Source: a bacterium | Lineage (GTDB): Bacteria; Patescibacteriota; Patescibacteriia; UBA10025 | Direction: 5' to 3' | Length of the DNA stretch: 64,000 nt | Assembly: GCA_021815445.1 (NCBI GenBank) | Contig: JAKAGM010000001.1 | Coordinates: 67,447-131,446 of the forward strand | Shown: positions 1,304-64,000 of the stretch, piece after piece | Layout of the letters: the number at the start of each line of letters is the position of its first letter | Position numbering within the stretch: the stretch's first letter is position 1 | Translations under genes and position numbers: made by a program | The notes under the pieces: model-generated | Database searches by the model: none | The model's input: only the letters and a program-made list of their open reading frames with translations | What the model was told of the DNA's origin: nothing

Positions 1304-1459
1304 GCGGTAAAGTACATACAATAATACTACCGTGTATTCGACAACGGGCGGCTTTCTGGTAATCAACCGTGCCGGAAACCTTGCCTCTTCGGAGACGTTC
1401 TGGTACTCTGATTACGCTTTAAAAAACAGAACATTCAACAACTTATAGGAGAAGAAATC

Positions 1460-1909
1460 ATGTCACTCATCAAGCTTAGTCCGATCGCAGAAACGTGCGG
1501 CGTGGAGGAGCGCCAGCTTACTCACGAGAGCTATTCTGTTGCTGCTGCTCCGACAAAGGATCATGCAAACAGTTCAGGGAAGGTCAGCGGGGGATTGCTC
1601 GCAACGCTCCTAGACGACACGATGGCCCGTTATCTGGCCCATGTTCTCGGCGTGCAGTCAATGATGACGTTGTCGCTCACCGTGCATTATCTCAGCGCGG
1701 TGCATGTAGGAAATATTCTCGCCATCTCCGTGCGCATTTCCCGCAAGGGGGACAAAATCTCCTATGCGGAGGGAACTATCGAATGCGGTGGCAATGTGGT
1801 CGCCCAAGCCATCGGCACGTTCGGCCATGCCGGTCCAAGGTTCCGGAATCTTGGGGAGCATGCGGGAGAGAAGTCCGAACAAGCGTCAGCCGTAGGCCTA
1901 AACGCTTGA
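1460..1909 (+). CDS. PaaI-family hotdog-fold thioesterase
   Basis: N..G.VSGGLLATLLD motif and MTLSLTVHYLSAV; SD AGGAG upstream. Confidence 0.8.
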   Translation: MSLIKLSPIAETCGVEERQLTHESYSVAAAPTKDHANSSGKVSGGLLATLLDDTMARYLAHVLGVQSMMTLSLTVHYLSAVHVGNILAISVRISRKGDKISYAEGTIECGGNVVAQAIGTFGHAGPRFRNLGEHAGEKSEQASAVGLNA

Positions 1910-1990
1910 TTCCCATGGTTCATCTTTGCCACGGTCGGTTCATCCTTTGACTCTCATAGGATCTCTTACCGGTCGTGGTTTTTTTATTTG

Positions 1991-2096
1991 ACCCCGTTAG
2001 AAAGTGTACAGGAACTTTTCTTAAGTATTTTAGGATTTTGAGTTCATGGAGGACTATTATTTCAATTTAAGTATTATGTACATTTTCTAACGGGGT
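1991..2096. mobile_element. MITE-like element with 20-bp terminal inverted repeats
   Basis: ACCCCGTTAGAAAGTGTACA (1991-2010) and TGTACATTTTCTAACGGGGT (2077-2096) match 19/20 as inverted repeats. The interior is AT-rich and non-coding, and TG flanks both sides. Confidence 0.7.
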
Positions 2097-2183
2097 TGAC
2101 ACTTGCCACCTTTTTTTGATAAAGTTTTTTAAATTGTCAAAACCTTGCGAAATAGGACGTTGTCAACCAGGAGGGAGAATACC

Positions 2184-3512
2184 ATGAAGTGGACCAGCAG
2201 GTTCGTCATGTGCGCGGCATTGTTTTGCCTCATGATCGCGCAGGTTTCGGCACAGCACGCGCCGAGCCGGGACACAACGAATGCCATGAGGTACTTCGAC
2301 AAAATCAAGCTCACCACCGGCCTGAAATGGCTGGACTATATGGTGGGAGATGTGAACCGTGGCACGTACAACGCCGAGAAATTGAACTTAGAAATCGGCA
2401 GCGAGGACTTTAATCTGTACACCTTCGACCTCAAGATGAACGGGTATCATGGAGTGGATCTCGCTGGACTCGGCGCCAACGCCAATGAACAGGCCTCGGG
2501 GTTCACCATTCCTGCGAACTCTGCACTCTCGTTTCGAGGGGTGTACAACAACTGGATTGAGTACGGTTCAAATGTGGCTACCCATGCCGGCGGAGTCTAT
2601 GCTGATTTCCAGCGGGACTCGACCTGGCAAGCCGAACTTGGTGTTGAACAGTTTTTCGCGAAGGCGCCGGAAGTCTACTTTGGGAACCTTATCCGGCGGA
2701 CAGGGGACAACTTTCCGCTCTTTGAACACGTGACGGCCGGGTATTCAGCTCGCTTTAACCAGGATGACGGGAGTGACCATCACTTTGAACACCGCTACCA
2801 GTTTGGAGGCATCATCCCGGTCGTTGACAGCGTCGCGTACATTGCCGGTTCCATAAGCGGGAGGCTGAACCCGGTATCCTGGAACAGTCACGATCGCGGA
2901 TACTATGTGGCGTTTGCACTTCCCGTGTCCTTTCAAGACACTAGCGGATGGGCGCCCAGCGCGTTCGTCAGCTTCAGGTCCAAACCAGGAAGCAAGAGCG
3001 CGATGGCGTTTGGGGGGTTCGGTGGAAAGGCCATCAACTTACCAGTGGTCAATGCTCTTCTCCAGTCCGGTTTTGAAACACAGTTGATTCCGACCCGCGT
3101 GGTGAACAATCGATCATTCAACATCGCTGTTCTCAGCGCGCATACAAGCGAGTTCGGCAGGCTCGCATGGGAGGCGGTCTGGTACAAGTTTGACATCTCG
3201 GAACATGTGTCTGCAGTCGAGTCTGAATACGGGCTGTACTACACGGTTCCAAACTGGTCCCCAGCAGGCCTTAAGAGATGCTTCGTCGGCGTGGTCGGCT
3301 CGCATGAAGACCAGATACTCTTTGACACTAAGACGTACCAGCTCAAGAGTACCGGCCACACGCAGTATATCGTCGAGCTCGGCGGGCGAGCGCGCATCGG
3401 CGTTCCTCGTGACCGTCGCAATGAAAAAGGATTCCTTCGCGTCGGCATATCAACGCTCCTCGGCAGCTCCGGCTACGAGGGCACCATGCTCGAGGCGACG
3501 GCATGGTTTTGA
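2184..3512 (+). CDS. Secreted protein, predicted beta-barrel-like
   Basis: Signal peptide MKWTSRFVMCAALFCLMIAQVSA, many alternating aromatic/Gly strands, C-terminal ...LEATAWF; strong SD AGGAGGGAG. Confidence 0.6.
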   Translation: MKWTSRFVMCAALFCLMIAQVSAQHAPSRDTTNAMRYFDKIKLTTGLKWLDYMVGDVNRGTYNAEKLNLEIGSEDFNLYTFDLKMNGYHGVDLAGLGANANEQASGFTIPANSALSFRGVYNNWIEYGSNVATHAGGVYADFQRDSTWQAELGVEQFFAKAPEVYFGNLIRRTGDNFPLFEHVTAGYSARFNQDDGSDHHFEHRYQFGGIIPVVDSVAYIAGSISGRLNPVSWNSHDRGYYVAFALPVSFQDTSGWAPSAFVSFRSKPGSKSAMAFGGFGGKAINLPVVNALLQSGFETQLIPTRVVNNRSFNIAVLSAHTSEFGRLAWEAVWYKFDISEHVSAVESEYGLYYTVPNWSPAGLKRCFVGVVGSHEDQILFDTKTYQLKSTGHTQYIVELGGRARIGVPRDRRNEKGFLRVGISTLLGSSGYEGTMLEATAWF

Positions 3513-3529
3513 ACATTACAGTTTGTTTC

Positions 3530-3646: not shown

Positions 3647-4420
3647 GTGTCCACAAAAAGCGTTCTGCTCGTCGCACTGGCAATCGGCCTTGTCACGCTG
3701 GTAGCTTCAACACCTACCTACTGGTTCGACTTGCTGCCGTGCTACGGGTTTATTCTGGCAGTGCTTCTCATGGTCCCGGGCGCCAGTAGCCGGTTAGGGC
3801 ATGTGGCTATTGTGCTCGTGCTTGGCTTTACTTTTTTCCTACTCTACACCTTCAAGCTCCAGATGCCGGAATATCTGCTGAGATATTTCACGAGGCCCGG
3901 TCTCGTCATCGGCCGCGGAATGGTCATCTTCGAGACAGTGGCCCTGGGCATTTTGGCTGTCCTGATGCCGAAGGATTTTAAGATTCCTTATGGCATCCGG
4001 GAAATGGACGGCAATAAGCAAGCGATGCTGATTCTCGCTATCTACTGTGCCGTCTCCATCATAGTGCGTAAGACATGCGGTGAGCAGGCATTCAACATTT
4101 TCTTTTTCCTCTTTTCCATCCCAGCGGCCTTCACAATCCTGTTTGTGGAGCTGGCAAGCCCACGCTTCATCACTGCCTGTGGTATAGCTGTAGTTGGATT
4201 ATCCATAGTCGGGATCTTTATGAAGCTGAACATGGTGCAGGCTCTATCCGCTCATCAGGTTGTACTTACCGCCATGATGGCATGTACGGTGATTTTTGCC
4301 GCGATCCTGTACCTTTTCCGCCTGCCGACGGCTGGGGAGGCATCGGCAAGAACTTCTACAAGTTTTACTGATCTCTCTCAGACAACTCCGTATGACGGAG
4401 CACCGTCACGCACTCCTTGA
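3647..4420 (+). CDS. Multi-pass membrane protein, unknown function
   Basis: About 8 hydrophobic segments; GTG start with SD AAGGAGGAG. Confidence 0.7.
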   Translation: MSTKSVLLVALAIGLVTLVASTPTYWFDLLPCYGFILAVLLMVPGASSRLGHVAIVLVLGFTFFLLYTFKLQMPEYLLRYFTRPGLVIGRGMVIFETVALGILAVLMPKDFKIPYGIREMDGNKQAMLILAIYCAVSIIVRKTCGEQAFNIFFFLFSIPAAFTILFVELASPRFITACGIAVVGLSIVGIFMKLNMVQALSAHQVVLTAMMACTVIFAAILYLFRLPTAGEASARTSTSFTDLSQTTPYDGAPSRTP

Positions 4421-4628: not shown

Positions 4629-5003
4629 ATGTCAGTGCCGAGAATACCGGTGATTTTCGTTGCGGGACGAAATGATCTGGGTATCCCCAAAGACGTTTGC
4701 GAACAGATTCGCACCGTGACACCGGCATCCGTCGCCGTCACCAAATCTGTCGCGACCCTTACGCAGTTTTGTGAGGAATCAGTCGTCCCGGATCTGGTCA
4801 TCGTGACCAATCTGGAGAATACGGGGATCGACACGCCGACCGTAATCAAACGGCTCCGTGAGCTCGGTATACAGGTTGCCGTGATGGTGAGCACGCTCAC
4901 CGAATCGGCAATCAGAAGCATGGGAGTGCACATCATCCGGAAACCGGCGCGATTGGGCCCGCTCATTGAGTGCGTCATACGCGCGCTTCCGGCCAGGGCG
5001 TAG
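4629..5003 (+). CDS. Atypical (pseudo) receiver-domain protein
   Basis: CheY-like order of elements; PDLVIVTN in place of PDLxxxD; conserved IIRKP; SD AAGGAG. Confidence 0.6.
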   Translation: MSVPRIPVIFVAGRNDLGIPKDVCEQIRTVTPASVAVTKSVATLTQFCEESVVPDLVIVTNLENTGIDTPTVIKRLRELGIQVAVMVSTLTESAIRSMGVHIIRKPARLGPLIECVIRALPARA

Positions 5004-5166: not shown

Positions 5167-5547
5167 ATGCTTCCAAGTGATTTGCGGATTGTCGTAATGG
5201 GCAAGACCGAAGACATGCCCAGAACGATCACGGAGGAAATTCAGGCCATGTTGCCATCAGCGTTGGTTGAGACCTGGCCGGCAACGCGGAACATCCCTGA
5301 GGGACCGACGGGGTTCAACCTTTGTGTGCTGACGAACAGCACATTCGAGGACGGGTTGACCGCTGTCCAGATCATCGAGGCCAACCCTCGTCCCAGCTTC
5401 CTGATCTTCGTGGATGGTGATACGAGGTCCCAGTTTGAGGGCGCCGGGAGTAATGTTCACCTGGTGGACAAGCCTGCTACGGCAATGAAGCTGGTCGCCG
5501 CAATCCTCGAAGCGGTGCCGGATGAGGAGTTTGCCGCTACTGAGTAG
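5167..5547 (+). CDS. Atypical (pseudo) receiver-domain protein
   Basis: LRIVVM...FNLCVLTN...DGLTAVQII...LVDKP; phosphoacceptor Asp absent; SD GAAAGGAG. Confidence 0.6.
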   Translation: MLPSDLRIVVMGKTEDMPRTITEEIQAMLPSALVETWPATRNIPEGPTGFNLCVLTNSTFEDGLTAVQIIEANPRPSFLIFVDGDTRSQFEGAGSNVHLVDKPATAMKLVAAILEAVPDEEFAATE

Positions 5548-7071: not shown

Positions 7072-7473
7072 ATGCCAAAAAATGGGAGTTTGCTGGACGT
7101 CCTGATGTGGGTGGTCGGCGCAACGCTCGGTCTTGCACAGCTATTTCTGCTTCATAGCAGGGGCGCGGCTGTTCTCATGCTGTTTGCCACGTTGTTGTTA
7201 GCGGCCATCAGCTACTATGCCACTATAGAGAGTTGCATGAACCAAAGCCACGAAGTATTTCGCAAACTGTGGTGGCACGGCGGGCTCAAGGAGATCATCA
7301 AGTTCTTGGCCGCACTGGATGCCTTGATGTTGTTTTTGGCTGTGTCTACGGCCCTCGGGAGTTACACTGTATTTTGGCCCGGGGTAATAGCCAGTATTGT
7401 GGCGCTGAATGTCGCCGCGCTCTTTAGCGGTTTGTTTGCCGCGCTGCGTACCCATCTCGACCTCGTTAACTAA
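7072..7473 (+). CDS. Small 4-TM membrane protein
   Basis: Four hydrophobic segments; SD GGAGGG; own promoter and terminator. Confidence 0.65.
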   Translation: MPKNGSLLDVLMWVVGATLGLAQLFLLHSRGAAVLMLFATLLLAAISYYATIESCMNQSHEVFRKLWWHGGLKEIIKFLAALDALMLFLAVSTALGSYTVFWPGVIASIVALNVAALFSGLFAALRTHLDLVN

Positions 7474-7981: not shown

Positions 7982-7984
7982 CCT

Positions 7985-11345: not shown

Positions 11346-11525
11346 ATGCGCATTGTCATCATATCTCTCGTGCCTGTATGTTCGGTCGTAGCTCTTCTTG
11401 CGCCTTATCACGAGACATTTGTGGCTTTCGCGATCGTTATTTTCATATTCGCTGGTATGGCCAATACCAAGCCACGAAATAGTGCTTTTTTCAGTTCGCT
11501 GTTCCGATCCATTTTCAGTCGATAG
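11346..11525 (+). CDS. Small 2-TM protein
   Basis: SD GGAGGG, TTGACA promoter at 11281, 59 aa hydrophobic ORF. Confidence 0.5.
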   Translation: MRIVIISLVPVCSVVALLAPYHETFVAFAIVIFIFAGMANTKPRNSAFFSSLFRSIFSR

Positions 11526-11773: not shown

Positions 11774-12985
11774 ATGCATAAACGTATCGGCGGTGGCACG
11801 ATCGAAACTATCACTATCTCAGTCGATGGGAGACTTCAGCAGGTACCCGCGCGCGTCGGCCTTTTTGGGACCGGGATCTGCGTCATCCATGACGGTCCCC
11901 GAAACCTTGGTGTCCCATATTGGGAAAACCAGCTCGTCCATGAACTTCGTGAGGGAGGTGAAGAGGATCTCGCAGTTTTGTATACGCCTGACAACCTGGT
12001 CTATCAACGGATTCAATCGGTCTTTTCCGGGGTACGCCAGGCGCTGCGCATACTCGACGGCAACTACGGAGTTTCATTTGCTGCGGGGATGAAAGGGAGG
12101 CTGGTCGGGGCTGTCGCCACATTGAGAATGATCAATAGCGCGGCGACAGGACTGTGGACGACGACTATCGAAACTCAGATCGAAGGATTTCACAAACTGG
12201 TCGAAAGGCTCATCGGGCAGATCGGCACCCGGCCGACTGACTACCGGAAGCGGGAGGTATTAAAGATCGCCGAGGCGATCTCAGACGGGAAAGACAGCAC
12301 CGGCAGAGTCAACCAGACTGTCGTCATGGCCAAGTCTGTCGCCGGAATGAACCGCGTCGAATCAGTCATTGACGGCATCCTCAGTATCGAGCCAGTCATA
12401 GTCGCGCGGCAGCGTGCGTTCATCAACATGCTTCATCTTGCGGAGGGCGTCACGATTGGTGCAAGGGAATTTCTCGAAAAGCTCTTTGCGATGGAGAATG
12501 CTGCCATCTCGTCTGCCAAGCCCCAGATCGATTCAGCGCTTGGTTTCTACATTCAGGAGTTCACCGAGATGGACTTCTCGCCATATTTCCGGACTTTCTA
12601 CATGTGCGCCCGCGAATTCGGTGATGCGCAGAAGCACCTTCGGGAGGATCGCGTTGATGAAGCGCTTGCTGTGCTTCGCCAAAGCCTCGAGTCGCTCAAA
12701 ATCAGGGTTGTGCGAACCGATGTCGAACGCCTCCTCCTGGTGATCGAGCTTCACAGGATCAATCCTCGGGAACATAAGGTGGATATCCGCCATATTCACA
12801 GTACGCTTGGCGACGCGGTGAAGACACTGAGTGCCGTGAATGAAAGCGGTTTTGCCCTTCCGGTTACCGAAGAAGCGGTCAGGTCCCTTTCGTACGCACG
12901 AGAGCTTATAGCTACGGCGAACTCAGTGAGTTCGCTCAACGCGGAATTCGATCATACGGTTCGCGAGGGCATCAAACTTCTCTAA
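11774..12985 (+). CDS. Hypothetical, largely helical protein
   Basis: 403 aa ORF, SD AAGGGAG, followed by a terminator (AACTCCC/GGGAGTT plus T run). No family recognised. Confidence 0.7.
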   Translation: MHKRIGGGTIETITISVDGRLQQVPARVGLFGTGICVIHDGPRNLGVPYWENQLVHELREGGEEDLAVLYTPDNLVYQRIQSVFSGVRQALRILDGNYGVSFAAGMKGRLVGAVATLRMINSAATGLWTTTIETQIEGFHKLVERLIGQIGTRPTDYRKREVLKIAEAISDGKDSTGRVNQTVVMAKSVAGMNRVESVIDGILSIEPVIVARQRAFINMLHLAEGVTIGAREFLEKLFAMENAAISSAKPQIDSALGFYIQEFTEMDFSPYFRTFYMCAREFGDAQKHLREDRVDEALAVLRQSLESLKIRVVRTDVERLLLVIELHRINPREHKVDIRHIHSTLGDAVKTLSAVNESGFALPVTEEAVRSLSYARELIATANSVSSLNAEFDHTVREGIKLL

Positions 12986-13206: not shown

Positions 13207-13578
13207 ATGGATAGAGTAAGAAAGTCATTACTGGTGTCGGCAGTGGGCTTAATTGTGCTTGTCGGTGCGCTTGTGATCAAGAACCAGCCCGCGCCTCGCG
13301 CACTTGTGTGGGCGGGGACCATCTATCCGGTGATCACCGGGCTTATCACCCTGCTCTTTGCCAGGTATGAGCGCATGAGGGCAATGGCTTTCGTGGTGCT
13401 AGCTGGCGGCGCAGTGATGATGATCTGTGCGGCTACCCGAATGCAGGGTGAGTGGCAGTACTCAACCCTTGCGGTCGAAATTGTCGTTATGTCAATCGTG
13501 ACGTGGGCGATTCCGACTCAGGTCGTCGTACCCCGGTGGTCTGAGAATCTGCCGGATAGTCTCGACCATTGCTTCTAG
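13207..13578 (+). CDS. Small 4-TM membrane protein
   Basis: Hydrophobic segments; SD AAAGGAGG; TTGACA promoter near 13075. Confidence 0.65.
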   Translation: MDRVRKSLLVSAVGLIVLVGALVIKNQPAPRALVWAGTIYPVITGLITLLFARYERMRAMAFVVLAGGAVMMICAATRMQGEWQYSTLAVEIVVMSIVTWAIPTQVVVPRWSENLPDSLDHCF

Positions 13579-13852: not shown

Positions 13853-14323
13853 ATGCAGAATCCGGAAATTGTTGTTGATGAGAAGGTAAGCAAGATTACC
13901 ATCCACCGTGTAGCTGACCGTCTCGGAATCGCCGCGGAGCTGTTCGGACGTCTGGGCGAGGAGGGACTGTGCGTCGGCATTATGACAGTCGGTGACATAA
14001 TCGATAGTCACACGGACATATCGATTATCGTGGCCGCGGATATCGCCGACAGTACGATGAAGGCGCTGGAAAGCATGCGTGAGGAGCTTGGAGCTTCCAC
14101 GGTCACTCGCAGCAACGACGCTGTGGCTATAAGCGTGCTTACCAAAAGCATGCATCAACCCGGTTTTGCGGGCCGTGTTTTTCGCGCGCTTACTGCCGCA
14201 AACGTCAGAATCGACATGATCACGGCGATGAAAGAAGGCATGACCTGCGTCATTGACGAACGATTTCAGGATACAGCTCTTGAGGCGCTCAGATTGGAGT
14301 TCCCGGAGGCAAAAGAATCCTGA
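13853..14323 (+). CDS. Stand-alone tandem ACT protein, aspartokinase beta-subunit-like
   Basis: KITIHRVADRLGIAAELF...DISIIV...SMHQPGFAGRVFRAL...VRIDMI...CVI matches the LysC C-terminal/beta subunit; no kinase domain. Confidence 0.8.
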   Translation: MQNPEIVVDEKVSKITIHRVADRLGIAAELFGRLGEEGLCVGIMTVGDIIDSHTDISIIVAADIADSTMKALESMREELGASTVTRSNDAVAISVLTKSMHQPGFAGRVFRALTAANVRIDMITAMKEGMTCVIDERFQDTALEALRLEFPEAKES

Positions 14324-20770: not shown

Positions 20771-20971
20771 ATGGGAAAGCGAGGGAACACCCAATCTCAA
20801 AAGCGTCCTTTGGCACCTGTGGTAAAACGACTGACCTCCACGCAGATATGCGATGCATGCAGTCCGGGTGCTCAGACGCGATGTTTTCACTGTCCAGAGT
20901 GTCCGGTGGGCGCTGACCCCGGAAACGGTTTCGTTTCCCGCACACCGTTCGAGGTCCTTCCACCCCTGTGA
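20771..20971 (+). CDS. Small Cys-rich protein
   Basis: SD GGAGGTG, TTGACA promoter near 20707, CDAC...CFHCPEC, downstream terminator GCC..GGC plus T run. Confidence 0.55.
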   Translation: MGKRGNTQSQKRPLAPVVKRLTSTQICDACSPGAQTRCFHCPECPVGADPGNGFVSRTPFEVLPPL

Positions 20972-23025: not shown

Positions 23026-23868
23026 ATGGAGCTCATCGATACCCACTGTCATCTCAATTTTAACGCCTACAAGGACGACATAGACCAGGTCGTGAAACGC
23101 ACCCTCGATGCGGGGATGCGCGTGATTAACGTCGGCTCGCAGAGCACGACGAGCCAGCGCGCTATCGACATGGCGGCCCAGTACCCGGGCAAGATGTTCG
23201 CCGCAGTCGCGCTTCATCCCATCCATCTCCACACGATGCACGTAGACGAGGTGGAGATTCCTTTCACGACCCGCGAGGAAGAGTTCGACGAGAAGCTGTA
23301 CGACAAGCTCGCCCAGAAACCGGGCGTTGTCGCAATCGGAGAGTGCGGGCTTGATTATTTCCGCATCCCCGGCGACATTGACGAAGCTGAGTATATCAAA
23401 AAACAGAAGGATGTCTTTCTCAAACATGTTGAGCTGGCGCAAAGGCGGTCACTCCCGCTTATTTTGCATTGCAGATCAATGAAAGACGACCCCGAACGCG
23501 CATACCTCGAAATGCTCGAGGTACTACAGCACGCGAACTATTCCCGCGGCGTTGTCCACTGTTACGGCTCGACGCTCAACGTGGCAAAGAAATTTCTCGA
23601 CGTCGGTTTCATGATTTCGTTCACCGGCATCATAACCTTTCCGAATGCGAAAGAGCTTGTCGAGGTAGTGAAGTTCGTCCCGCTGGACCGGATGATGGTG
23701 GAGACCGACGCGCCATACCTTGCTCCTCAACAGTTCAGGGGCAAACGTAACGAGCCGCTCTACGTGAAGTATGTTGCAGAAAAGGTGGCCGAAACCAAGA
23801 GCGTTCAGCTCGAAGACGTCGCACGCCAGACGACGGAGAATGCTGAAAAGTTTTTTGGGTTACAGTAA
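23026..23868 (+). CDS. tatD: TatD-family hydrolase
   Basis: DTHCH, AIGECGLDY, LHCR, GVVHC, VETDAPYLAP. Confidence 0.95.
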   Translation: MELIDTHCHLNFNAYKDDIDQVVKRTLDAGMRVINVGSQSTTSQRAIDMAAQYPGKMFAAVALHPIHLHTMHVDEVEIPFTTREEEFDEKLYDKLAQKPGVVAIGECGLDYFRIPGDIDEAEYIKKQKDVFLKHVELAQRRSLPLILHCRSMKDDPERAYLEMLEVLQHANYSRGVVHCYGSTLNVAKKFLDVGFMISFTGIITFPNAKELVEVVKFVPLDRMMVETDAPYLAPQQFRGKRNEPLYVKYVAEKVAETKSVQLEDVARQTTENAEKFFGLQ

Positions 23869-23943: not shown

Positions 23944-24138
23944 TCAGTCGTCGTCACCCTCGGGGATTGGCCCGCCGACCTTATGGCCGCTGCCGGTAGT
24001 CCAGCTGCAGCCGTCTGGCTGGAAAGCGGTGAGCGTGTGTCGCGGCAACTCTCCATCCGACGGATCTTCTGGGACCTGCGACTGCGCTTGTTGCGAAACT
24101 CCGTTTCCGGATTCCCTCGAACTTTTTTGATTCCTCAT
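23944..24138 (-). CDS. Small hydrophilic peptide (64 aa)
   Basis: SD GAGGGG, minus-strand TTGACA..TACTAT promoter near 24199-24226, hairpin at 23890-23916 downstream. Confidence 0.5.
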   Translation of the reverse strand: MRNQKSSRESGNGVSQQAQSQVPEDPSDGELPRHTLTAFQPDGCSWTTGSGHKVGGPIPEGDDD

Positions 24139-28819: not shown

Positions 28820-29984
<1,165 letters not shown>

Positions 29985-30946: not shown

Positions 30947-30985
30947 TACATTTCATTCACATTTAGCACCAAATAACATATCCGT

Positions 30986-33440: not shown

Positions 33441-34823
<1,383 letters not shown>

Positions 34824-34837
34824 TATTACTTCTTTCC

Positions 34838-40869: not shown

Positions 40870-41361
40870 TTAGGGCCAACGATAGAAGCCGATAAGCATG
40901 TCTTTGCACTTCACACCTTCTGCGGCGGATACGAGGATGACGTCGGAAAGCTGGGCGATGATATAGGCGCCCCGACCGCCTTCGTTAAGCGACGGCGGGA
41001 GATCGTTGAAGCGCATTGATGCAATCCCGTCGGCGCCCGCGTGGTCGAGAATGATGACGTAAAACCACGCCGACGGTTCGTAAATGAGTTTTACGTGTAT
41101 GCGCCTCCATGTGACTTTTTTCTCGACGGTTCGAGCTGAATTCTCGAATGCTTCGGAGATGCCGATGATTGACGACCCGTCGGGTTCGCCGAAATGCATT
41201 GTCGCCATAAGATCCTCGATCTGCTGGACGACAACCTGTCTCTCGGTGAAAGAGTCGAAGGATAGATCCATGACGCAAATGCCTGACGGATCGACAACCG
41301 GGTATGGTTTGCCCGGCGGCCAGTCGTCTTTGACTACCAGGACGGAACTTTTCGTGCGCAT
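40870..41361 (-). CDS. HATPase_c protein, RsbW/anti-sigma kinase-like
   Basis: GISEAFEN (N box), ILDHAG (G1 box), GGRGAYII (G2 box). Confidence 0.7.
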   Translation of the reverse strand: MRTKSSVLVVKDDWPPGKPYPVVDPSGICVMDLSFDSFTERQVVVQQIEDLMATMHFGEPDGSSIIGISEAFENSARTVEKKVTWRRIHVKLIYEPSAWFYVIILDHAGADGIASMRFNDLPPSLNEGGRGAYIIAQLSDVILVSAAEGVKCKDMLIGFYRWP

Positions 41362-41961: not shown

Positions 41962-43002
41962 ATGCTTGAACAGCTTGAACAATTCAAAACGCAAGCCGAC
42001 AAGGCCATAACTTCCGCAAATACCCTGCAGGAGCTGCGGGATGTTGAAGTCCATTTCCTCGGCAGGCGCGGCAAGCTAGCGTTGCTTTTGCAACAGTTGA
42101 GGGACTTGCCGCAAGAGGAGCGTCCTGCAGCCGGCGCGCGGGCGAACGAGCTCAAGAAAGACCTTATTGCCGCGTTGGCCCATCGGGCTGAATCGCTCAA
42201 AGGCGGTACTCCCGCGTCTACTTCGCACGTTCTCGATATTACATGGCCGGGCGAACGCATGCCTTACGGGCACATCCATCCGCTGACCCGTTTTCTCCGT
42301 CTGGTGACGTCAATTTTCTCCTCGATGGGATTCGAGATTATTGAGGGCCCCGAAGTCGAGAGCACGAAGTATAATTTCGACCTCCTCAACATCCCAAAAG
42401 ATCATCCCGCGCGGGACGTGTGGGATACTTTTTTTGTCCGATCGCCAGAGGGGGTGAAGTCGGCGGAAGGGGATTTGGTCCTGCGCACGCACACAAGTCC
42501 GATGCAGGTGCGCGCGATGGAAACCCGCACGCCGCCTGTGCGCTTCATCGTTCCCGGCCGCGTTTACCGCCACGAAGCGACCGATGCTTCACATGAAGCG
42601 ATGTTTTACCAGTGCGAGGGGTTGGTTATCGACAGGGGGATCCGCGTCACCGACCTTCTCGGCACGCTCAAAATTTTCCTGCAGACACTTTTTGAAAAGA
42701 AAGTTAAAATCCGCGTGAGGCCGGAATTCTATCCTTTTGTCGAGCCGGGTCTTGATATCGACATGTCCTGCCTCCTCTGCGACGGCAAAGGGTGTCCTGC
42801 ATGCAAGCAGTCGGGCTGGATGGAAATGATGGGTTCAGGAATGGTGCACCCGAAAGTGCTGACGAATATGGGCGTTGATCCGAAGGTATACTCAGGGTTC
42901 GCCTTCGGCCTCGGCATTGATCGTCTCATGATGCTGTATTTCGGCATTGACGATGTGCGTCTTTCGTACCAGAGCGACATGAGATTTCTTGAACAGTTTT
43001 AG
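41962..43002 (+). CDS. pheS: Phenylalanine--tRNA ligase alpha subunit
   Basis: HPAR..DTF, LRTHTSPMQ, YPFVEPG, GFAFGLGIDR. Confidence 0.97.
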   Translation: MLEQLEQFKTQADKAITSANTLQELRDVEVHFLGRRGKLALLLQQLRDLPQEERPAAGARANELKKDLIAALAHRAESLKGGTPASTSHVLDITWPGERMPYGHIHPLTRFLRLVTSIFSSMGFEIIEGPEVESTKYNFDLLNIPKDHPARDVWDTFFVRSPEGVKSAEGDLVLRTHTSPMQVRAMETRTPPVRFIVPGRVYRHEATDASHEAMFYQCEGLVIDRGIRVTDLLGTLKIFLQTLFEKKVKIRVRPEFYPFVEPGLDIDMSCLLCDGKGCPACKQSGWMEMMGSGMVHPKVLTNMGVDPKVYSGFAFGLGIDRLMMLYFGIDDVRLSYQSDMRFLEQF

Positions 43003-43059
43003 ATTGTGTCAAAGTGTATGAAAAGCGAAGTCACAAGTTTCCCAAACATTTAGGACTTT

Positions 43060-47497
<4,438 letters not shown>

Positions 47498-47607
47498 GGG
47501 TTTTCGCATCCCACTTGACGTGTAAAGGGGCGCATGATACAGTGTTCATGTACCCCCTGCGAGGGGGTTTTTGAGACCGAGATTTTCAGGCCGCACAGCG
47601 GACTTCT

Positions 47608-47802
47608 ATGGCAAACAAACTTATCAGCTATATCAGGGAATCCCGCGATGAACTGCGGAAGGTGATCTGGCCGTCCCGGCAGGAGACGATACGCCACACC
47701 CTTCTTGTCGTTGGCGTTTCAGTCACCGTTGCCATTGTTTTGGGGATAGCGGACTATGTCTTCACGATCGGTTTCGAGAAGCTTCTTCTTAAAGTCACCT
47801 AA
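47608..47802 (+). CDS. secE: Preprotein translocase subunit SecE
   Basis: ELRKVIWPSR followed by a TM segment; precedes nusG. Confidence 0.93.
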   Translation: MANKLISYIRESRDELRKVIWPSRQETIRHTLLVVGVSVTVAIVLGIADYVFTIGFEKLLLKVT

Positions 47803-47820
47803 GGCGGCCTTTTTGCCTCT

Positions 47821-48366
47821 ATGCCAAAGCAGACATTGAAACAGGGCAGGAAATGGTACGTACTCCACACGTATTCGGGGTACGAAGAGAACGTCGCGCG
47901 GAACCTGCGCCAGCGTATCGAGTCGATGGATATGCAGGACAAGATTTACAGCGTCCTCATCCCGACTGAAAATAAGATCCGCATCAGGAACGGCAAACGC
48001 AGGATTGTCACTGAAAAGATATTTCCCGGCTACGTGCTTGTCGAAATGATGGTGACTGACGATTCATGGTACGTCGTGCGCAACACGCCGAACGTGACCG
48101 GCTTCGTCGGATCAGGGACCACCCCGACGCCTATCTCAGACGACGAAGTCAAAGAAATCCAAAAACGCATGGGCATCACCGAGCCCAAGTATAAGATCGA
48201 CGTCGGCGTCGGTTCGCCGGTCAAGATCACCGACGGCCCGTTCAAAGAGTACGAAGGCAAGGTGTCAGAAGTCGACGAGGCCCGCGGCAAGGTCAAAGTG
48301 CTCGTATCCATGTTCGGCCGCGAAACGCCTATCGAGCTCGACTTCCTCCAGGTGAAGAAGATTTAA
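47821..48366 (+). CDS. nusG: Transcription elongation factor NusG
   Basis: [21 protein letters not shown] motif GPF, MFGRETP. Confidence 0.97.
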
Positions 48367-48385
48367 CTTTCCCAATTTTTTCTTT

Positions 48386-48808
48386 ATGGAAAAAAAAATA
48401 AAGACAGTGCTCAAACTCCAGCTCCCCGCGGGCAAAGCGACCCCGGCTCCGCCCGTAGGACCGGCGCTCGGCCAACACGGCCTCAACTTGCAGGAGTTCT
48501 GCACGAAATTCAACGCGGCGACCAAAGACAAAGCCGGCGATATCATCCCGGTCGAGATTACCGTCTTTGAAGACCGCACGTATTCGTTTGTCACCAAGAC
48601 TCCTCCCGCCGCCTCTTTGCTCAAAAAAGCCGCAGGCATCGAAAAAGGTTCCGGAAGCCCGCTGGCCACGAAGGTCGGCAAAGTGACAAAGAAGCAGATC
48701 GAAGATATCGCGAAGCTCAAGATGCCCGATCTGAACGCGAAAGACCTGGCCGGAGCCATGAAGATTATCGAGGGTACTGCCCGAAACATGGGCATTACCG
48801 TCGAGTAA
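48386..48808 (+). CDS. rplK: 50S ribosomal protein L11
   Basis: [26 protein letters not shown]. Confidence 0.98.
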
Positions 48809-49887: not shown

Positions 49888-50571
49888 ATGCCACAACATT
49901 CTAAGCGGTATCGGGAAGCGCAGAAGCTTATCGACAGGTCAAAGAAGTATACGGCCGAAGAAGCCGTCAAACTTCTCCAGCAGGTATCGAAGGTCAAATT
50001 CGACGCCGGTGTTGAGATCCACTTGAATCTCGGCATCGATCCGAAGAAAGCCGACCAGATAGTCAGGGGAACTGTCTCCCTTCCTCACGGGACGGGCAAA
50101 AAAAAACGGGTAGCCGTCTTTGCCGAGGGGAAAGACGCCGACGCGGCAAGGAAAGCCGGCGCCGACATCGCAGGCGGCGAGGAACTGATTAAAGAAATCA
50201 AGCAGAAGGGCGCCGTTGATTTTGAAGTCGCCATTGCGCATCCTTCGATGATGCGACACCTCGGCCAAATCGCGAAGATTTTGGGTCCCAAAGGCCTCAT
50301 GCCCAACCCCAAGAATGAAACCGTCACGCCCGACGTGGCGGGAGCCGTCCGGGACGTCCAGGGCGGGAAAGTCAGCTTCCGCAATGACGACTCGGGAAAT
50401 ATCCACCAGCTGGTAGGCCGCATTTCGTACGAGGCGCCCAAGCTTGTCGAAAATCTCGCGGCGTATCTCGAAGCCGTCAAACGCGCCCGCCCTGCCGCGG
50501 CGAAAGGCACCTACATCGTTTCCGCCACGCTTTCATCATCAATGAGCCCGGGCATACCTATCGTCGTATGA
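49888..50571 (+). other. rplA: 50S ribosomal protein L1
   Basis: KFDAGVE, VRGTVSLPHGTGK, LGPKGLMPNPK. Confidence 0.97.
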
Positions 50572-52781: not shown

Positions 52782-53024
52782 ATGGGGGTAATACTGTGCA
52801 ATAGTCTATCGATCAAGAGAGCTGATGGCAGGGAAGATGTCGTCGCAGACTCAATCACCAAGGATGGACCTCCAAAACTGAACGACGGACCCTCGACATT
52901 GAATCTGCTCAAGATTGACTCCCGAGCCGCCGTAGTCGGCAAGGACGGACCCGTGAGTACTGTCGATATCCGTCCGCGCAGAATGTCAGCCGTGGAACTT
53001 CTCCTGAGCATTCGTCTCAGTTAA
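52782..53024 (+). CDS. Small hypothetical protein
   Basis: SD GAAAGGAG, TTGACA promoter near 52703, terminator AAGCCC/GGGCTT plus T run. Confidence 0.55.
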   Translation: MGVILCNSLSIKRADGREDVVADSITKDGPPKLNDGPSTLNLLKIDSRAAVVGKDGPVSTVDIRPRRMSAVELLLSIRLS

Positions 53025-53496: not shown

Positions 53497-54213
53497 CTAC
53501 TTCTTCCGTCCCATGATGCTGAGGATGCGGACGAACAGATTGACCACATCCAGGAAGATAGCCACCGAACAGTCGACTGCGTTATCCAGCGTGCGGGGAA
53601 GTCGGAGCGCCCTGTTCCAGTCGAAGATGATGTAGATGCAGAACAAGACAGCGACGAAGTAGTCGAACCCGAGCCACAGATAGTGCCACATGGTGCTGTA
53701 CATGTCCGCGTCCGGCGCGAGCGGCCCTGCCGAAGCGGGGAAAAACAGTCTCGCGATACTCACCAGCACGACTGCGGTCAGTATCCCGAAAAGGTACCCG
53801 CCCCAATGTTCGAGCGACTGCGGGATAATGATCCCGACGATGGACATCGCGACTGACACGCCGCACGTGGCAAGCAGTGCGTTTATAACGACACCCGACT
53901 CGTACAGGTTTACCGTCGGTCCGCAAATAGCGCCGATGCCCCCCACGACGAGGAAGTACCCGAAGAGCGATACTCCCCACTGGTCGCACATGAAGGCGAT
54001 GAAGATGCCCAGTATAGGCATTGCCAGGCCGATGGTGATGACCTCGAAAAGCAAAGGATGCCAGTGCAGGGTCATGTATGCGATGAACGACGCCACAAGC
54101 ATCCCCAGTACCGTAAACCCGCTGACGGCGAATATGTACGCACGCTGAGACAGGATGTCATCTGCATCCCACCCGCGCCGTTCCCAAATTGATTCTCCCA
54201 AGCTTAGACTCAT
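53497..54213 (-). CDS. BAX inhibitor-1/YccA family membrane protein
   Basis: About 7 TM segments, YIIFD and IFLDVVNLF; SD GGAGGAGG. Confidence 0.85.
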   Translation of the reverse strand: MSLSLGESIWERRGWDADDILSQRAYIFAVSGFTVLGMLVASFIAYMTLHWHPLLFEVITIGLAMPILGIFIAFMCDQWGVSLFGYFLVVGGIGAICGPTVNLYESGVVINALLATCGVSVAMSIVGIIIPQSLEHWGGYLFGILTAVVLVSIARLFFPASAGPLAPDADMYSTMWHYLWLGFDYFVAVLFCIYIIFDWNRALRLPRTLDNAVDCSVAIFLDVVNLFVRILSIMGRKK

Positions 54214-59734: not shown

Positions 59735-60205
59735 ATGCGGAGAATCATCCCGTTGCTGTCGATCGCGGTGTTTTGCACGTTCTGTGCAGGCTGTATCAGA
59801 GAAGTCAACGAGCGGTCAAACCTCCTGACGGAGACTGTGAAAGCGCGGGACCTTGTTTACACGCCTGCAGTCCACGGATCCGGCATGGGGCCCACGATGC
59901 GTATGACCAAGGGCGGCGGTATCGGTCTCGGACTCGCCATCACATCAGTCAACACCGAGGAGGTCTACTCGATCGTCTTCGAGTGCCAGCACGGCGGATT
60001 CGTCATCCAGCGAGAGGAGTTATGGAAGAAGCTCCATAAGGACTCCACGTACCATTGCAGGTATGTCGAGCTGTATCGGACCGTCTATGATGGAAAACCC
60101 GACACGCTCGTCTCACGGACGCTCGTGGGCTACGATTTCCTGGGTCTCGAGGAGTTCCCCGATCTCATGGAAAAGCCTGACGAGATGTACCACCCTGTCA
60201 AATGA
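59735..60205 (+). CDS. Putative lipoprotein
   Basis: MRR plus a hydrophobic stretch and CAGC lipobox; SD GAAGGAG; terminator AAGCCCGG/CCGGGCTT. Confidence 0.65.
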   Translation: MRRIIPLLSIAVFCTFCAGCIREVNERSNLLTETVKARDLVYTPAVHGSGMGPTMRMTKGGGIGLGLAITSVNTEEVYSIVFECQHGGFVIQREELWKKLHKDSTYHCRYVELYRTVYDGKPDTLVSRTLVGYDFLGLEEFPDLMEKPDEMYHPVK

Positions 60206-62090: not shown

Positions 62091-62173
62091 AACAGCGGGA
62101 CTCCGGATCCATCTTGTCATTCAACCCTATCTGTCGGCGGGAATGAGACAAATATTTGTGCTATAATTACTCC

Positions 62174-62431
62174 ATGAAGCAGAACATGCAGAAAATTGTC
62201 ATATACAAAGATGCCCGGGGGGATGTGAAGCTTAAAGCCGATGTTCGCGCCGAGACTCTTTGGGCTACCCAAGCGCAGATTGCCCAGCTTTTTGGGGTAG
62301 ATAGAACAGTGGCGACAAAGCACATCCGCAACATATTTTCTGATGGCGAGGTCAACAAAAAAAGCAATGTGCAAAAAATGCACATTCCTCACTCGGATAA
62401 GCCGATCACAGTGGCTTACTGTCTATCGTAA
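62174..62431 (+). pseudogene. RhuM-like N-terminal fragment
   Basis: ETLWATQAQIAQLFGVDR...KHIRNIF..GE...SDKP, then a stop next to degenerate REP-like palindromes. Confidence 0.7.
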
Positions 62432-62648
62432 ATCCACGGGATCCTTCCCCGCCTGCGCTTTCAGCTTCGGCAGGTTCAGGATGGTGGTATTTCGCAACGG
62501 GATTCCGGATCCCTCCAGAGGCGGGCAGGCAAGTCCGGAGTGGTAATGAGCTTTGTGTTATGGGCAGTTGACAGTTCGGGAGGAGTGCGGTATAAAGGAC
62601 GAAATTGCATAAAAAGTACTTTTCACCCCACAACCGGCGGAGGGTTTC

Positions 62649-63335
62649 ATGAACGGAACGGTCTACTTCCTGATGTATAGCGATAGGGTCAGGGCGCAAA
62701 TGATCGATGCGCTCAGCCTCATGAGCTATGGAATGTATGTGGTGTCGCTTACCTTTATCTTACACCCAGAACAGTTCGTGACATGTTTTTCGGTCATACT
62801 GGTCGGAACCGTGCTGCTTACACGCCTGATGAGTGTATTCGCATGCCATCTTCATCGCGAACTGCGCGTGATGGCGGCAGTAGGCTCACCGTTGTATCTC
62901 GGAGCGTGCATCTTGTCTCTTTTCCTCATCTACCCACTCGGACCGACGGTAAAATTCCCCATTGGGCACCCGGAGTCGGCAGTTGAAGTTCGAAGCATTG
63001 CCCTGTTTTTCTCATGGCGGGAGGAAGTCCGGGTGTACTCCACTTCAGCGCACCATTCCTATCGGCACGGCGGGAAGGTTTTGCTGTTCGATACCAAATA
63101 TGACGGGGCGATACTCGACTTCCACCGCCGATTTGGGAGCTCGCAGGCGTTTGCCGACTCTTCGGGAGCCGAAGTGATCCGATTTGCTGAAAGCTATTTC
63201 ACGGGCAATCCGAATGCCACGATGGTCGGCCTGGCCCTGCAGCTGCAGCAGGGCCTTCCGGGCCTGAGCATCAGCAATGTTGTCCTGGGGACTGTCCCCG
63301 AGGAGAGCTCTTTGACCCCCGTTGCGATCAAGTAA
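62649..63335 (+). CDS. Membrane protein, unknown function
   Basis: 3 N-terminal TM segments plus a soluble domain; SD GGAGGG. Confidence 0.6.
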   Translation: MNGTVYFLMYSDRVRAQMIDALSLMSYGMYVVSLTFILHPEQFVTCFSVILVGTVLLTRLMSVFACHLHRELRVMAAVGSPLYLGACILSLFLIYPLGPTVKFPIGHPESAVEVRSIALFFSWREEVRVYSTSAHHSYRHGGKVLLFDTKYDGAILDFHRRFGSSQAFADSSGAEVIRFAESYFTGNPNATMVGLALQLQQGLPGLSISNVVLGTVPEESSLTPVAIK

Positions 63336-63457
63336 CGGGTTTTTTCTTTTTGAAGATGAGGTACGATGTACATTGACGTTGACCGTGTGTATGAGTAGAA
63401 TGACGACGGAGGAAAAGGAGTGACAAAACCGTTCTCTTCATCTGAAAGGAGTCCACA

Positions 63458-64000
63458 ATGCGCAGTTTGTGGAGAAAGCTCGAACGGAATACTCGACAGT
63501 TGGCTGCCTTCGGGCTGGTGACTGCGGTTACCGTCTTGGTGGTGTGGGGTTCTATTGCGTCACCCGACTCAGTTCTTGGCGAGTATACGTCGGCGGCGTT
63601 GTTGTCGACTGGCATATGCCTGTTGGCCATCATGGGTGGGGTCTTTACAGCTATGTACGTGGCGCATCGGAATTCTCCAGTGACCATGAGGCTGATTCAA
63701 TCGTTGACACTAGCCTGTGCGGTCGGGTTAGTTACCATGTTCTGCACCGTTTCCCGCTTCGATGGAAATACGGTCCTCATCAGCCGAACTACCGGTGAAA
63801 TACGCGTGCCGTCCGGATTCGCTATTTACAATCCTCTCGAATTTCGACCGTCTGTATACATGCGCACGATTACCGTCACCGACACCGAAGTCGGATATAT
63901 GGTAAGGGTTAGTCCACGGATGACGGTGAAAGAGCTTCAAACCAAGTTCGGGTCTCCGGTGGCGTGCAGGCAGGTATACACTACGATCATTCATAACGCA
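63458..64000 (+). CDS. Membrane protein, truncated by the window end (not in the ORF track)
   Basis: SD GAAAGGAG; manual translation MRSLWRKLERNTRQLAAFGLV... is open to the window end, with 3 TM segments. Confidence 0.65.
   Translation, partial: MRSLWRKLERNTRQLAAFGLVTAVTVLVVWGSIASPDSVLGEYTSAALLSTGICLLAIMGGVFTAMYVAHRNSPVTMRLIQSLTLACAVGLVTMFCTVSRFDGNTVLISRTTGEIRVPSGFAIYNPLEFRPSVYMRTITVTDTEVGYMVRVSPRMTVKELQTKFGSPVACRQVYTTIIHNA

Follow-up and report, generated by a model that had tools for sequence, protein, structure and literature searches.

Two classes of gene-start signals, tied to gene conservation and promoter type, in a Patescibacteria genome and its relatives

Bacteria of the candidate phyla radiation (CPR) constitute a large share of bacterial diversity; most of their genes are without known function, and their gene expression is almost unstudied. 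In Actinobacteria, Deinococcus, and the corresponding genome classes of gene finders, leaderless first genes, with the -10 box just upstream of the ATG, occur together with genes led by a Shine–Dalgarno (SD) sequence. In the available passages on Bacteroidia, the anti-SD is described as sequestered by the ribosomal proteins bS21, bS18, and bS6 and the mRNAs as SD-less, and rpsU, which encodes bS21, carries an extended SD and is autoregulated (Jha et al. 2020, PMC7797042; McNutt et al. 2023, PMC9976891; Baez et al. 2019, PMC6847099). The contact residues given there are Tyr54 of bS21, K/R37, Phe50, Asn56, and Gln58 of bS18, and Trp100, Arg103, and Lys107 of the C-terminal helix of bS6 (PMC7797042). 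For Francisella tularensis, the available parts of two reports describe bS21 paralogs that adjust how a subset of genes is translated (Trautmann et al. 2022, PMC9578407; PMC12262407), and for CPR bacteria, ribosomal peculiarities, including an enlarged bS6 and bS21 and the loss of the anti-SD in about half of the Parcubacteria, are described in the passages available (Tsurumaki et al. 2022, PMC9297842). Here, we analyzed a 64,000-nt window (C2:67447-131446) of the Patescibacteria genome G000, in which a preliminary description had separated SD-less core genes from 20 stand-alone genes with SD-like motifs and had proposed that the latter form a separate expression programme.

The genes of G000 fall into two signal classes, which are tied to gene conservation, composition, and promoter type and recur in relatives, and the SD of rpsU is strong throughout the relatives surveyed. 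These classes probably reflect a dual gene-expression architecture, in which an ancestral SD-less core stands beside a flexible, partly acquired set of SD-led genes; as far as the signals indicate, it spans this genome and three genomes of one Patescibacteria class.

Start signals across the genome and its relatives

G000 comprises 1.26 Mb in two contigs (C1 and C2) with a GC content of about 50%. Genes and starts were called using a home-made hexamer-based caller, which yielded 1185 genes at a coding density of 85%. SD strength was calculated as the ViennaRNA duplex energy (dG) between mRNA positions -19 to -4 and the last 12 nt of the 16S rRNA of G000 itself, and genes with dG <= -8 kcal/mol were regarded as SD-led; this cut-off is arbitrary, and the results at -10 were concordant. 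Pfam matches were accepted at 1e-3 in the window and 1e-5 in contig C1. A homolog refers to a blastp match (E <= 1e-5) in one relative, the complete same-order genome G007, for which our own gene calls were used. A second relative, G033, belongs to another family of the class and comprises 200 kb and 177 genes.

The single 16S gene of G000 ends in ...GGAUCACCUCCUUUCU, which is the canonical anti-SD (tail GGATCACCTCCTTTCT), and the canonical tail was identical in all five relatives checked (G001, G003, G007, G009, and G033). An in-frame start with an SD was found for 213 of 1185 genes (18.0%), compared with 4.5% and 3.0% in the two other frames; therefore, about 14-15% of the genes truly use an SD, and G000 is SD-poor despite its canonical anti-SD. 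When the first possible start alone was scored, 10.5% of the genes were SD-led vs. 4.2-5.0% at three kinds of control positions. The SD core 4-mers peaked at -14 to -8, the core spacing peaked at 5-6 nt, and GTG and TTG accounted for 28% of the starts of SD genes and 11% of those of non-SD genes.

The genome-wide comparison of SD energies between core and orphan genes that the preliminary description had called for gave a strong difference. In contig C1 (345 genes), which does not contain the window and served as an independent replicate, a Pfam family was missing from 49 of 77 SD genes and from 64 of 268 non-SD genes (Fisher p 3e-10); in other words, an SD preceded 43% of the family-less and 12% of the family-bearing genes. 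Over the whole genome, 141 of the 423 genes without a homolog in G007 (33%) were SD-led, compared with 72 of the 762 genes with one (9.4%, p 1e-23), the frame controls being 7.3% and 4.7% for the former and 2.9% and 2.0% for the latter. Overall, SDs were 4-5 times as frequent in non-conserved genes. The SD-led genes with a family (28 of the 77 in C1) included a sigma-70 paralog, PRPP synthase, SSB, ACP, FabF, PlsX, CofD, an M32 peptidase, a POT transporter, a T4SS pilin, DprA, and RecX. Among conserved genes, the SD rate was 7-12% in every upstream-gap class, compared with 17-40% among non-conserved genes, and operon-internal genes (gaps of 0-40 nt) carried an SD in 6-7% of cases.

The GC content of SD genes was 0.536 vs. 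0.501 for non-SD genes (p 2e-30), and among genes without a homolog it was 0.543 when SD-led and 0.490 when SD-less (p 3e-29). At the three codon positions, orphan SD genes had GC fractions of.587/.424/.621 and core genes.557/.385/.572; the orphan SD genes were also poorer in Lys (4.1 vs. 6.3%) and richer in Cys (1.7 vs. 0.7%), and their Trp content was high. The GC content of the upstream intergenic regions was equal (.43) for SD orphans and core genes. SD genes were shorter and had larger upstream gaps (146 vs. 70 nt). A logistic model gave odds ratios (OR) of 3.5 for the lack of a homolog, 3.1 per standard deviation of GC, and 1.2 for the upstream gap; this last value after adjustment ruled out the gap as the main driver. 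N-terminal hydrophobic or transmembrane-like segments were not in excess in SD genes (26% vs. 25%; 31-39% vs. 34-38%), and no bias of the SD class toward secreted or membrane proteins was found.

Promoters and leaders were compared for genes with an upstream gap of >= 100 nt. TTGAC was present at -110 to -18 in 74 of 141 SD genes and 88 of 410 non-SD genes (OR 4.0, p 2e-11). In SD genes, it peaked at -90 to -70, and the -10 box ended about 58-62 nt ahead of the start. Upstream of non-SD genes, TATACT was strand-asymmetric (78 sense vs. 18 antisense occurrences, context TGCTATACT). The median distance from the -10 box to the ATG was 30 nt for non-SD and 58 nt for SD genes, and a leaderless-like arrangement, with the box ending 4-15 nt from the ATG, was found for 53 of 167 boxes of non-SD genes vs. 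1 of 27 of SD genes. The proposal that all SD-less genes are leaderless was ruled out, as TANNNT at -12 occurred in 10% of the SD-less genes with gaps >= 60 nt. From -14 to -4, SD-less starts were G-poor (12-16%) and A-rich; U occupied -1 in 64% of them (59-75% per gap class; G in 4%) and C occupied -2 in 36%. The preference for U at -1 was seen in all upstream-gap classes and also in G007 and G033. Extended pairing with the initiator tRNA may be the reason for this preference. Judged from these predicted signals, the two classes differ jointly in transcription signals, leader length, and translation signals.

The primary RpoD gene was SD-less in both G000 and G007, and an additional sigma gene was strongly SD-led in both (-15.4 and -12.7, respectively). 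The additional gene lies at C1:132600-133940 (-) in G000, and that of G007 is gene q_714, encoding a different sigma of 280 aa; the two are not reciprocal-best orthologs. A second sigma factor is a candidate for reading the TTGACA promoters; the additional sigma of G000 has no reciprocal-best partner in G007.

The same split was observed in the relatives. In the whole genome of G007 (1088 genes), 15.6% of the genes were SD-led vs. 3.4% and 2.2% in the frame controls, and in G033, 22.6% vs. 2.8% and 1.7%. TTGAC preceded 60 of 94 strong-SD genes and 36 of 264 clearly SD-less genes of G007, with genes of dG -9 to -6 left out, and 13 of 27 vs. 18 of 90 genes of G033. Identical TATACT/TGCTAT motifs were found in G007, and in both genomes, SD genes were about 3 GC points richer and 61-67% of SD-less starts had U at -1. 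SD status was concordant in 683 reciprocal-best pairs of G000 and G007 (577 pairs SD-less in both and 22 SD-led in both; OR 7.2, p 3e-9). The shared SD pairs included the window genes starting at 11774 and 59735, atpE, and rplA, and also uS12, PNPase (named from its N-terminal sequence alone, without a family search), SSB, PRPP synthase, RecX, and a pilin. As the identical split is present in two relatives, it is a property of the lineage. Because the signal classes are real both genome-wide and lineage-wide and differ in promoter and leader, the term separate expression programme is a fair description of them.

A dual architecture and competing readings

In the architecture we favor, a first class would hold about 85% of the genes, comprising nearly all conserved housekeeping genes. 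These would be initiated without an SD, almost always at ATG, behind 20 nt with little G and much A, in which C occupies -2 and U occupies -1. Their operon-first members are predicted to be transcribed from TATACT-type -10 boxes, often TGCTATACT, and because these boxes lie near the start codon, their leaders would be short or absent. A second class, holding about 15% of the genes, would use a complete classical cassette. The TTGACA -35 element of this cassette would lie some 70-90 nt upstream, the leader would measure about 50 nt, a GGAGG-type SD would precede the start codon by 5-6 nt, and GTG and TTG would serve as starts more often. This class would mainly represent the flexible genome, that is, lineage-specific orphans and horizontally acquired accessory enzymes with a GC content above that of the core. 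Its conserved members would be both bS21 genes, uS12, uS7, uL1, uL2, atpE, SSB, PRPP synthase, PNPase, and the non-primary sigma factor. The canonical anti-SD would have been kept as a secondary initiation route, on which incoming or young stand-alone genes would depend together with a full -35/-10 promoter, and long-resident genes would have converged on the SD-independent, short-leader mode. The conserved strong SD of rpsU would couple bS21 synthesis to anti-SD availability, as in Bacteroidia.

The origin of the SD-led genes was followed beyond the genome for two to three orphans and two SD-led families. The orphan at 3647 had no match in 200 other genomes of the class or in three same-family genomes, and a single full-length homolog (69% identity) was found among 5.8 billion proteins; the orphan at 62649 had one marginal match in the 200 class genomes. 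In pattern-limited searches, which may have omitted close kin, none of the 27 nearest relatives of the SD-led M32 peptidase and none of the 80 nearest relatives of the SD-led FabF belonged to Patescibacteria. The peptidase matched mostly Armatimonadota (31-43% identity overall, 38-43% for Armatimonadota), and FabF matched many phyla at 48-56%. The top matches of the SD-less GyrB, used as a control, were Patescibacteria at 67-71% identity, namely metagenome-assembled genomes (MAGs) of Falkow-, Buchanan-, Veblen-, and Uhrbacteria. Of 65 SD orphans, none matched a PHROGs family at E <= 1e-4, compared with 2 of 64 orphans lacking an SD; this collection may hold few CPR phages. Genomic islands and a phage origin of the orphans were both considered and rejected, the former because the SD genes are scattered with mild clustering and the latter on the matches to this collection.

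Horizontal acquisition, which the preliminary description had offered as the simpler alternative, is borne out in part. Both SD-led families examined have only non-CPR nearest relatives, the SD genes are 3.5 GC points richer, Lys-poor, and Cys- and Trp-rich, and they are mostly missing from relatives. Atypical composition and, for two SD-led genes, nearest homologs outside the lineage are features of foreign genes. The version in which they are near-identical recent transfers did not hold, as the identities were 38-43% and 48-56% (69% for one orphan) and neither phage families nor more than mild clustering pointed to a mobile context. With relatives merely 38-56% identical, the transfers are old or their donors unsampled. 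On this sequence evidence, part of the SD class is foreign but not recent, and the remainder is lineage-restricted.

Several points weigh against the dual architecture. The gene set and its starts rest on our simple caller, the starts of SD genes were picked by the SD itself with the frame controls as the sole guard, and it is from sequence that the promoters, the leaders, and the real use of the SD are predicted. Both promoter types can be recognized by a single sigma-70 factor, and their split does not necessarily imply separate regulation. In C1, 48 of the 94 genes with neither a Pfam family nor a homolog in G007 have no SD, although some of these may not be real genes; with about half of such genes lacking an SD, orphan and SD-led are far from synonymous. 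SD status also turns over between orthologs, the SD being confined to the G000 member in 41 pairs and to the G007 member in 43, compared with 22 pairs that share it. The SD genes are dispersed, with mild clustering (51 adjacent pairs vs. 37.9 +/- 5.0 expected), and as no SD orphan fell into a phage family, no mobile-element vehicle was identified. Foreign origin was probed in two SD-led families and one non-SD control, with close kin possibly omitted.

The genes of bS21 bear on the alternative that fares best. The window holds an SD-led rpsU paralog of the E. coli-like type at 18603-18836 (-), which has a AAGGAGGA SD (dG -11.2) and TTGAC at -71; it matched PF01165 (E 2e-9, 37.5 bits vs. a cutoff of 27) and 28 bS21 sequences of the PDB at E <= 1 (best 9e-6). 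A second copy in C1 (L101:7823-8113; PF01165 E 8.5e-7, PDB E 1e-5) adjoins yqeY, starts at a GTG with dG -11.9, and belongs to the class-wide type, whose C-terminus is extended by a basic stretch of about 40 aa (KKEYLRKIGKL...). PF01165 was matched in 37 of 41 genomes, with at least two matches in 14 of 22 genomes of the order, matches not being equal to copy numbers. For the best locus per genome in 30 genomes, scored at the best in-frame start upstream of the domain, rpsU had dG <= -8 in 28 of 30 loci (median -12.35), many with GGAGGTGA, and 16 of 30 started with GTG or TTG. The rpsT control, treated identically in 30 of the same genomes, gave 1 of 30 (median 0.0); the Fisher p of 2e-13 overstates the evidence, the relatives not being independent. 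In the str-S10-spc cluster, 3 of 21 Pfam-confirmed ribosomal-protein genes reached -8 (uL2, uS7, and uS12), EF-Tu stood at +2.9, and the genes of bS6, bS18, bS20, and uL11 were SD-less. bS6 (L241; C1:193447-193950) has 167 aa and a K/E-rich C-terminal extension of about 70 aa. In known ribosomes, bS6 and bS21 sit near the 16S 3' tail.

In prfB, encoding RF2 (L350:1400-1500, C2 ~26240-26340, outside the window), a programmed +1 frameshift site of the classical type, CTT TGA C, has GGGGG 3 nt upstream, and the start of the gene itself lacks an SD and lies 8 nt after a TATACA box. prfB would therefore be a gene of the first class that uses the anti-SD in elongation.

A translationally switched regulon, one of the two forms that the preliminary description had given the separate programme, finds a lead in the rpsU survey. 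In a bS21-gated model of the Bacteroidia type, the 16S 3' tail would be inaccessible in mature ribosomes that carry bS21, and these would translate SD-less mRNAs; ribosomes without bS21 or with the other paralog would expose the anti-SD and translate the SD-led set. As this set includes rpsU, negative feedback would result, and about 170-210 genes would move with ribosome composition. We regard this as possible but doubtful. The near-universal strong or extended rpsU SD, in genomes where just 15-23% of the genes are SD-led, argues for it, as do the frequent GTG and TTG starts of rpsU, the SDs of both paralogs of G000, the genomes with at least two bS21 matches, the C-terminal extensions of bS21 and bS6, the SD-led non-primary sigma gene of G000 and G007, and the precedents in the available passages on Bacteroidia (PMC7797042, PMC9976891) and on the Francisella paralogs (PMC9578407). 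However, in Flavobacteriales the SD is essentially confined to rpsU, whereas real SD starts here are 4-6 times as frequent as in the controls, and many genes evidently make use of the anti-SD. The Flavobacterium johnsoniae bS21 chain 7jil_z aligned just to residues 8-48 of the window bS21 (E 0.0077), and a strong rpsU SD is equally expected for any stand-alone gene of the second class that needs efficient translation. If the Bacteroidia feedback model applies, bS21 status would affect the entire SD class, which we suggest with considerable reserve.

A coupled transcription-translation switch, in which the occupancy of bS21 or the choice of its paralog would decide between two modes of initiation, is an unlikely further step. 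bS21-replete ribosomes would serve the SD-less ancestral core, and bS21-poor or alternative-bS21 ribosomes would translate an SD-led flexible regulon of about 170-210 genes, which would hold both rpsU and the alternative sigma factor, the latter favoring the TTGACA promoters of those genes. If true, such a switch would control the accessory genome of an ultra-small symbiont and would extend a one-gene circuit of Bacteroidia to a genome-wide programme in a distant phylum.

That the SD genes are passive relics of recent transfer, whose donor SD and TTGACA elements are uneroded and have no role in the recipient, is improbable. Their absence from relatives, their higher GC at all codon positions with a distinct amino-acid composition, and the wholly non-CPR nearest relatives of the M32 peptidase and FabF would suit such an origin. 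At 38-56% identity, however, unselected 5-6-nt motifs at a precise spacing would not last; precise SDs persisting in these genes and in cross-family orthologs argue for selection in the recipient. The SD also fits the anti-SD of the recipient at the 5-6 nt optimum, three genomes of different families show the identical class structure, 22 ortholog pairs share the SD across families, the rpsU SD is class-wide, and SD orphans do not differ from the core in upstream intergenic GC.

Still less probable is an annotation artefact, in which the orphans would be spurious GC-rich open reading frames (ORFs) and the SD a product of choosing the best of several starts. It is true that the caller is home-made, that chance ORFs are longer in GC-rich sequence, and that the coding score per codon is somewhat lower in SD genes (0.219 vs. 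0.252). Nevertheless, SD starts of orphans occurred in frame in 33.3% of cases vs. 7.3% and 4.7% out of frame in the same regions, the excess persisted when the first start alone was scored, and the motif peaked at the canonical position. A TTGAC box, of which calling took no account, accompanies the SD at a constant distance; for one orphan, a full-length homolog with 69% identity exists elsewhere, and 28 of the 77 SD genes of C1 have a Pfam family.

The other form given to the separate programme, genes built for translation or action inside an SD-using host cell, is barely credible, since, even if CPR bacteria are often episymbionts and the cassette resembles a generic bacterial consensus, transmembrane-like N-termini are not in excess, the SD fits the organism's own anti-SD, no transfer machinery is linked to the class, and cell-autonomous proteins (bS21, uS12, uS7, uL1, uL2, SSB, PRPP synthase, AtpE, and the sigma factor) belong to it.

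Genes of the window and further loci

All 20 starts for which the preliminary description had reported an SD were ATG or GTG codons starting an open frame, each preceded at 5-9 nt by a purine-rich, SD-like motif, and 18 of them had dG <= -8 kcal/mol; 1460 (-7.3) and 41361 (-5.8) were weaker. The coordinates were valid, although 18836, 24138, 41361, and 54213 lie on the minus strand. The 20 core starts it had named (clpB-like, glyS-like, metG, rmuC, atp genes, pheST, gyrB, secE, nusG, and rplK) were indeed SD-less, all lying above -8 and 18 of them between +2.9 and -4.2, and the core annotations of the window were supported by the Pfam search. Its partial exceptions also held, with tatD at -10.1, an ABC-2 permease at -9.3, rplA at -9.6, and cvpA at -7.4. 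The additional claim that many SD-led genes have a promoter and a terminator of their own stood for the promoter, as TTGAC was located 64-108 nt upstream of 17 of the 20 genes and promoter-like sites in window positions 1-15000 numbered 26 vs. 12.2 +/- 3.5 in shuffles; terminator-like sites in the window scan (21 vs. 15.2 +/- 4.5 in shuffles) were not clearly enriched, and terminators were dropped as a class feature. The cross-table of SD against Pfam status (12 and 37 in one row, 15 and 9 in the other; Fisher p 0.002) includes four small SD-led ORFs that the composition-only caller had overlooked, bS21 among them. Rfam and tRNA scans of the window gave no matches.

As to the functions proposed earlier, Pfam supported the PaaI/4HBT, ACT, and BI-1 assignments, no Pfam support at E <= 0.5 was obtained for pseudo-receivers or a beta-barrel-like protein, and bS21 was present at the ORF described above, the starts at 20771 and 37285 having no family. 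The PaaI/4HBT-type thioesterase gene (1460..1909, +; PF03061 E 3e-10) has a weak SD (AGGAG), no TTGAC at -110 to -18, and no blastp homolog in G007. A stand-alone ACT-domain protein (13853..14323, +; PF22468, PF13840, and PF01842) is SD-led at dG -12.4, and the BI-1 (Bax1-I) membrane protein (53497..54213, -; PF01027 E 1e-25) at -12.6 with GGAGGAGGG; neither has a homolog in G007. The gene of 163 aa at 40870..41361 (-), with TTGAC at -71, had been called RsbW-like; it matched HATPase_c_2 (PF13581) below the threshold (E 0.0028, 18 bits vs. a cutoff of 27.4).

The remaining SD-led genes are mostly orphans. At the left end of the window, they encode 442 aa (2184..3512, +; dG -12.6, AGGAGGGAG, TTGACA promoter-like site at 2096-2125), with no Pfam match even at E 0.5 and no G007 homolog; 257 aa from a GTG start (3647..4420, +; -11.2, TTGACA site at 3562-3591); 124 aa (4629..5003, +; -8.8, TTGAC at -108), with no Pfam match at E <= 1e-3; 126 aa (5167..5547, +; -12.4, TTGAC at -99), followed by a terminator-like hairpin with a 10-bp stem and a T-run at 5576-5599; and 133 aa (7072..7473, +; -10.0, TTGACG-N18-TATACT at 6990-7019). 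The gene of 403 aa at 11774..12985 (+; -8.2) is followed by a terminator-like site at 13002-13019, and its reciprocal-best ortholog in G007 (30% identity) is likewise SD-led (-9.3). The orphan of 123 aa at 13207..13578 (+; -12.2, TTGACA site at 13075-13103) is probably a membrane protein, as suggested by weak transmembrane-type Pfam hints only. Small SD-led ORFs encode 59 aa (11346..11525, +; -9.8, TTGAC at -65; no family and absent from the set of the caller), 66 aa (20771..20971, +; -12.7, GGAGGTG; no Pfam match at 1e-5), 64 aa (23944..24138, -; -11.7, TTGAC at -88; no family), and a Cys-containing protein of 60 aa (37285..37467, +; -9.5; no family). Toward the right end lie orphans of 80 aa (52782..53024, +; -12.2, TTGAC at -79) and 228 aa (62649..63335, +; -10.0), a gene of 156 aa (59735..60205, +; -9.2) whose G007 ortholog (58% identity) is also SD-led (-9.8), and an orphan that continues past the window end (63458..64000, +; -12.2, TTGAC at -85 and -79).

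Among the core genes, tatD (23026..23868, +; PF01026) is conserved yet SD-bearing, atpE, encoding the c subunit (29772..29984, +; PF00137), has a modest SD (-8.2; G007 ortholog -10.1), and the G007 ortholog of rplA, encoding uL1 (49888..50571, +; PF00687), has a dG of -9.8. Two Pfam-supported blocks are SD-less: atpH, atpA, atpG, atpD, and atpC (30551..35272, +), with dG from -2.3 to +2.9 at all five starts and a pyrimidine at -1 in each, and pheS, pheT, gyrB, secE, nusG, and rplK (41962..48808, +), with dG from -5.3 to +2.8 and homologs in G007 for all (39-89% identity). One ORF at 56189-57649 (-) fuses LexA DNA-binding, S24 peptidase, and N6/N4 DNA methylase domains in a low-GC setting (0.36-0.43), adjoining an HTH gene and a family-less gene of 347 aa; the region looks like a small mobile or restriction-modification island of the SD-less type.

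Outside the window, a gene of the T4SS-pilin family (L084:6473-6829 (-), C1:45098-45457) has one of the strongest SDs of the genome (dG -19.4), and its G007 ortholog stands at -19.0 (GAAAGGGGGTGA), the strong SD being kept across families. A tandem array in C1 (L095:8464 to L096:6370) holds nine paralogs of 356-705 aa, each terminated by a PEP-utilizers mobile domain (PF00391); two are SD-led, and the array is broken by IS200-like, phosphatase, kinase, and aminotransferase genes. C1 also encodes a heliorhodopsin (L097:12668-13468; PF18761 E 8e-96) within about 20 kb of metal-homeostasis and thiol-disulfide-exchange clusters, and an open frame of 3700 aa (L100:3171-14270), whose sole Pfam match is an N-terminal HTH_17; after it come three genes of about 365 aa each, none with a family. 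Between rpsG and fusA of the str operon, an ORF of 196 aa (L210:11040-11627 (-), C2:593037-593627) had no Pfam match at 1e-12.

Comparison with known systems

Within the set of CPR ribosome peculiarities described by Tsurumaki et al. (2022, PMC9297842), G000 differs in that bS21, uL1, and the anti-SD are all retained. In its available passages, that paper does not address promoters, the SD of rpsU, or how SD usage varies with gene class, and among the open-access papers listed by full-text searches on SD sequences in Patescibacteria or CPR, subscription journals being outside the scope, no title or abstract dealt with SD classes, promoter classes, or the rpsU SD. In this lineage, the age or origin of a gene would be readable from its promoter, leader, and ribosome-binding signals, which would allow the ancestral core to be separated from the flexible genome by sequence only and would improve the annotation of start sites and small genes in MAGs.

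Francisella, in the available parts of the reports, is similar in that a small genome holds multiple rpsU genes, one of them adjoining yqeY, and in the idea that bS21 heterogeneity selects mRNAs. Its mRNAs commonly bear an SD, whereas G000 is SD-poor with two signal classes.

The resemblance to Bacteroidia is broader. In both, the canonical anti-SD is kept while most genes are SD-less, leaders are A-rich and G-poor, the genes of EF-Tu and ribosomal proteins are SD-less, rpsU has a strong and often extended SD (GGAGGTGA) throughout the lineage, and prfB retains an SD-stimulated frameshift site. The phylum here is Patescibacteria, however, and about 15-20% of the genes are SD-led compared with essentially one, so that the SD is not absent genome-wide. 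SD-less starts here have U at -1 and C at -2, in contrast to A at -3/-6 there, and U at -1 is not among the features of Bacteroidia in the available passages of the cited papers. Two bS21 types are present here. A further trait of the Bacteroidia type is that purified ribosomes fail to recognize the SD and hold the 3' tail in a platform pocket. A strong rpsU SD kept in SD-poor genomes this far from Bacteroidia suggests either that the bS21–anti-SD feedback has a greater age or wider distribution than assumed so far or that it evolved twice, and the question of why SD-poor bacteria keep an anti-SD becomes testable in a second phylum.

The genomes that combine leaderless and SD-led genes share with G000 the coexistence of two start signals and a leaderless-like subset, which here comprises the 53 of 167 boxes that end 4-15 nt from the ATG. 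They differ in that most SD-less genes of G000 are not leaderless, as TANNNT at -12 occurs in 10%, and in that its operon-internal genes are also without an SD (6-7% at gaps of 0-40 nt). A distinct -35 promoter and a link to the age and composition of genes further mark the SD class in this lineage.

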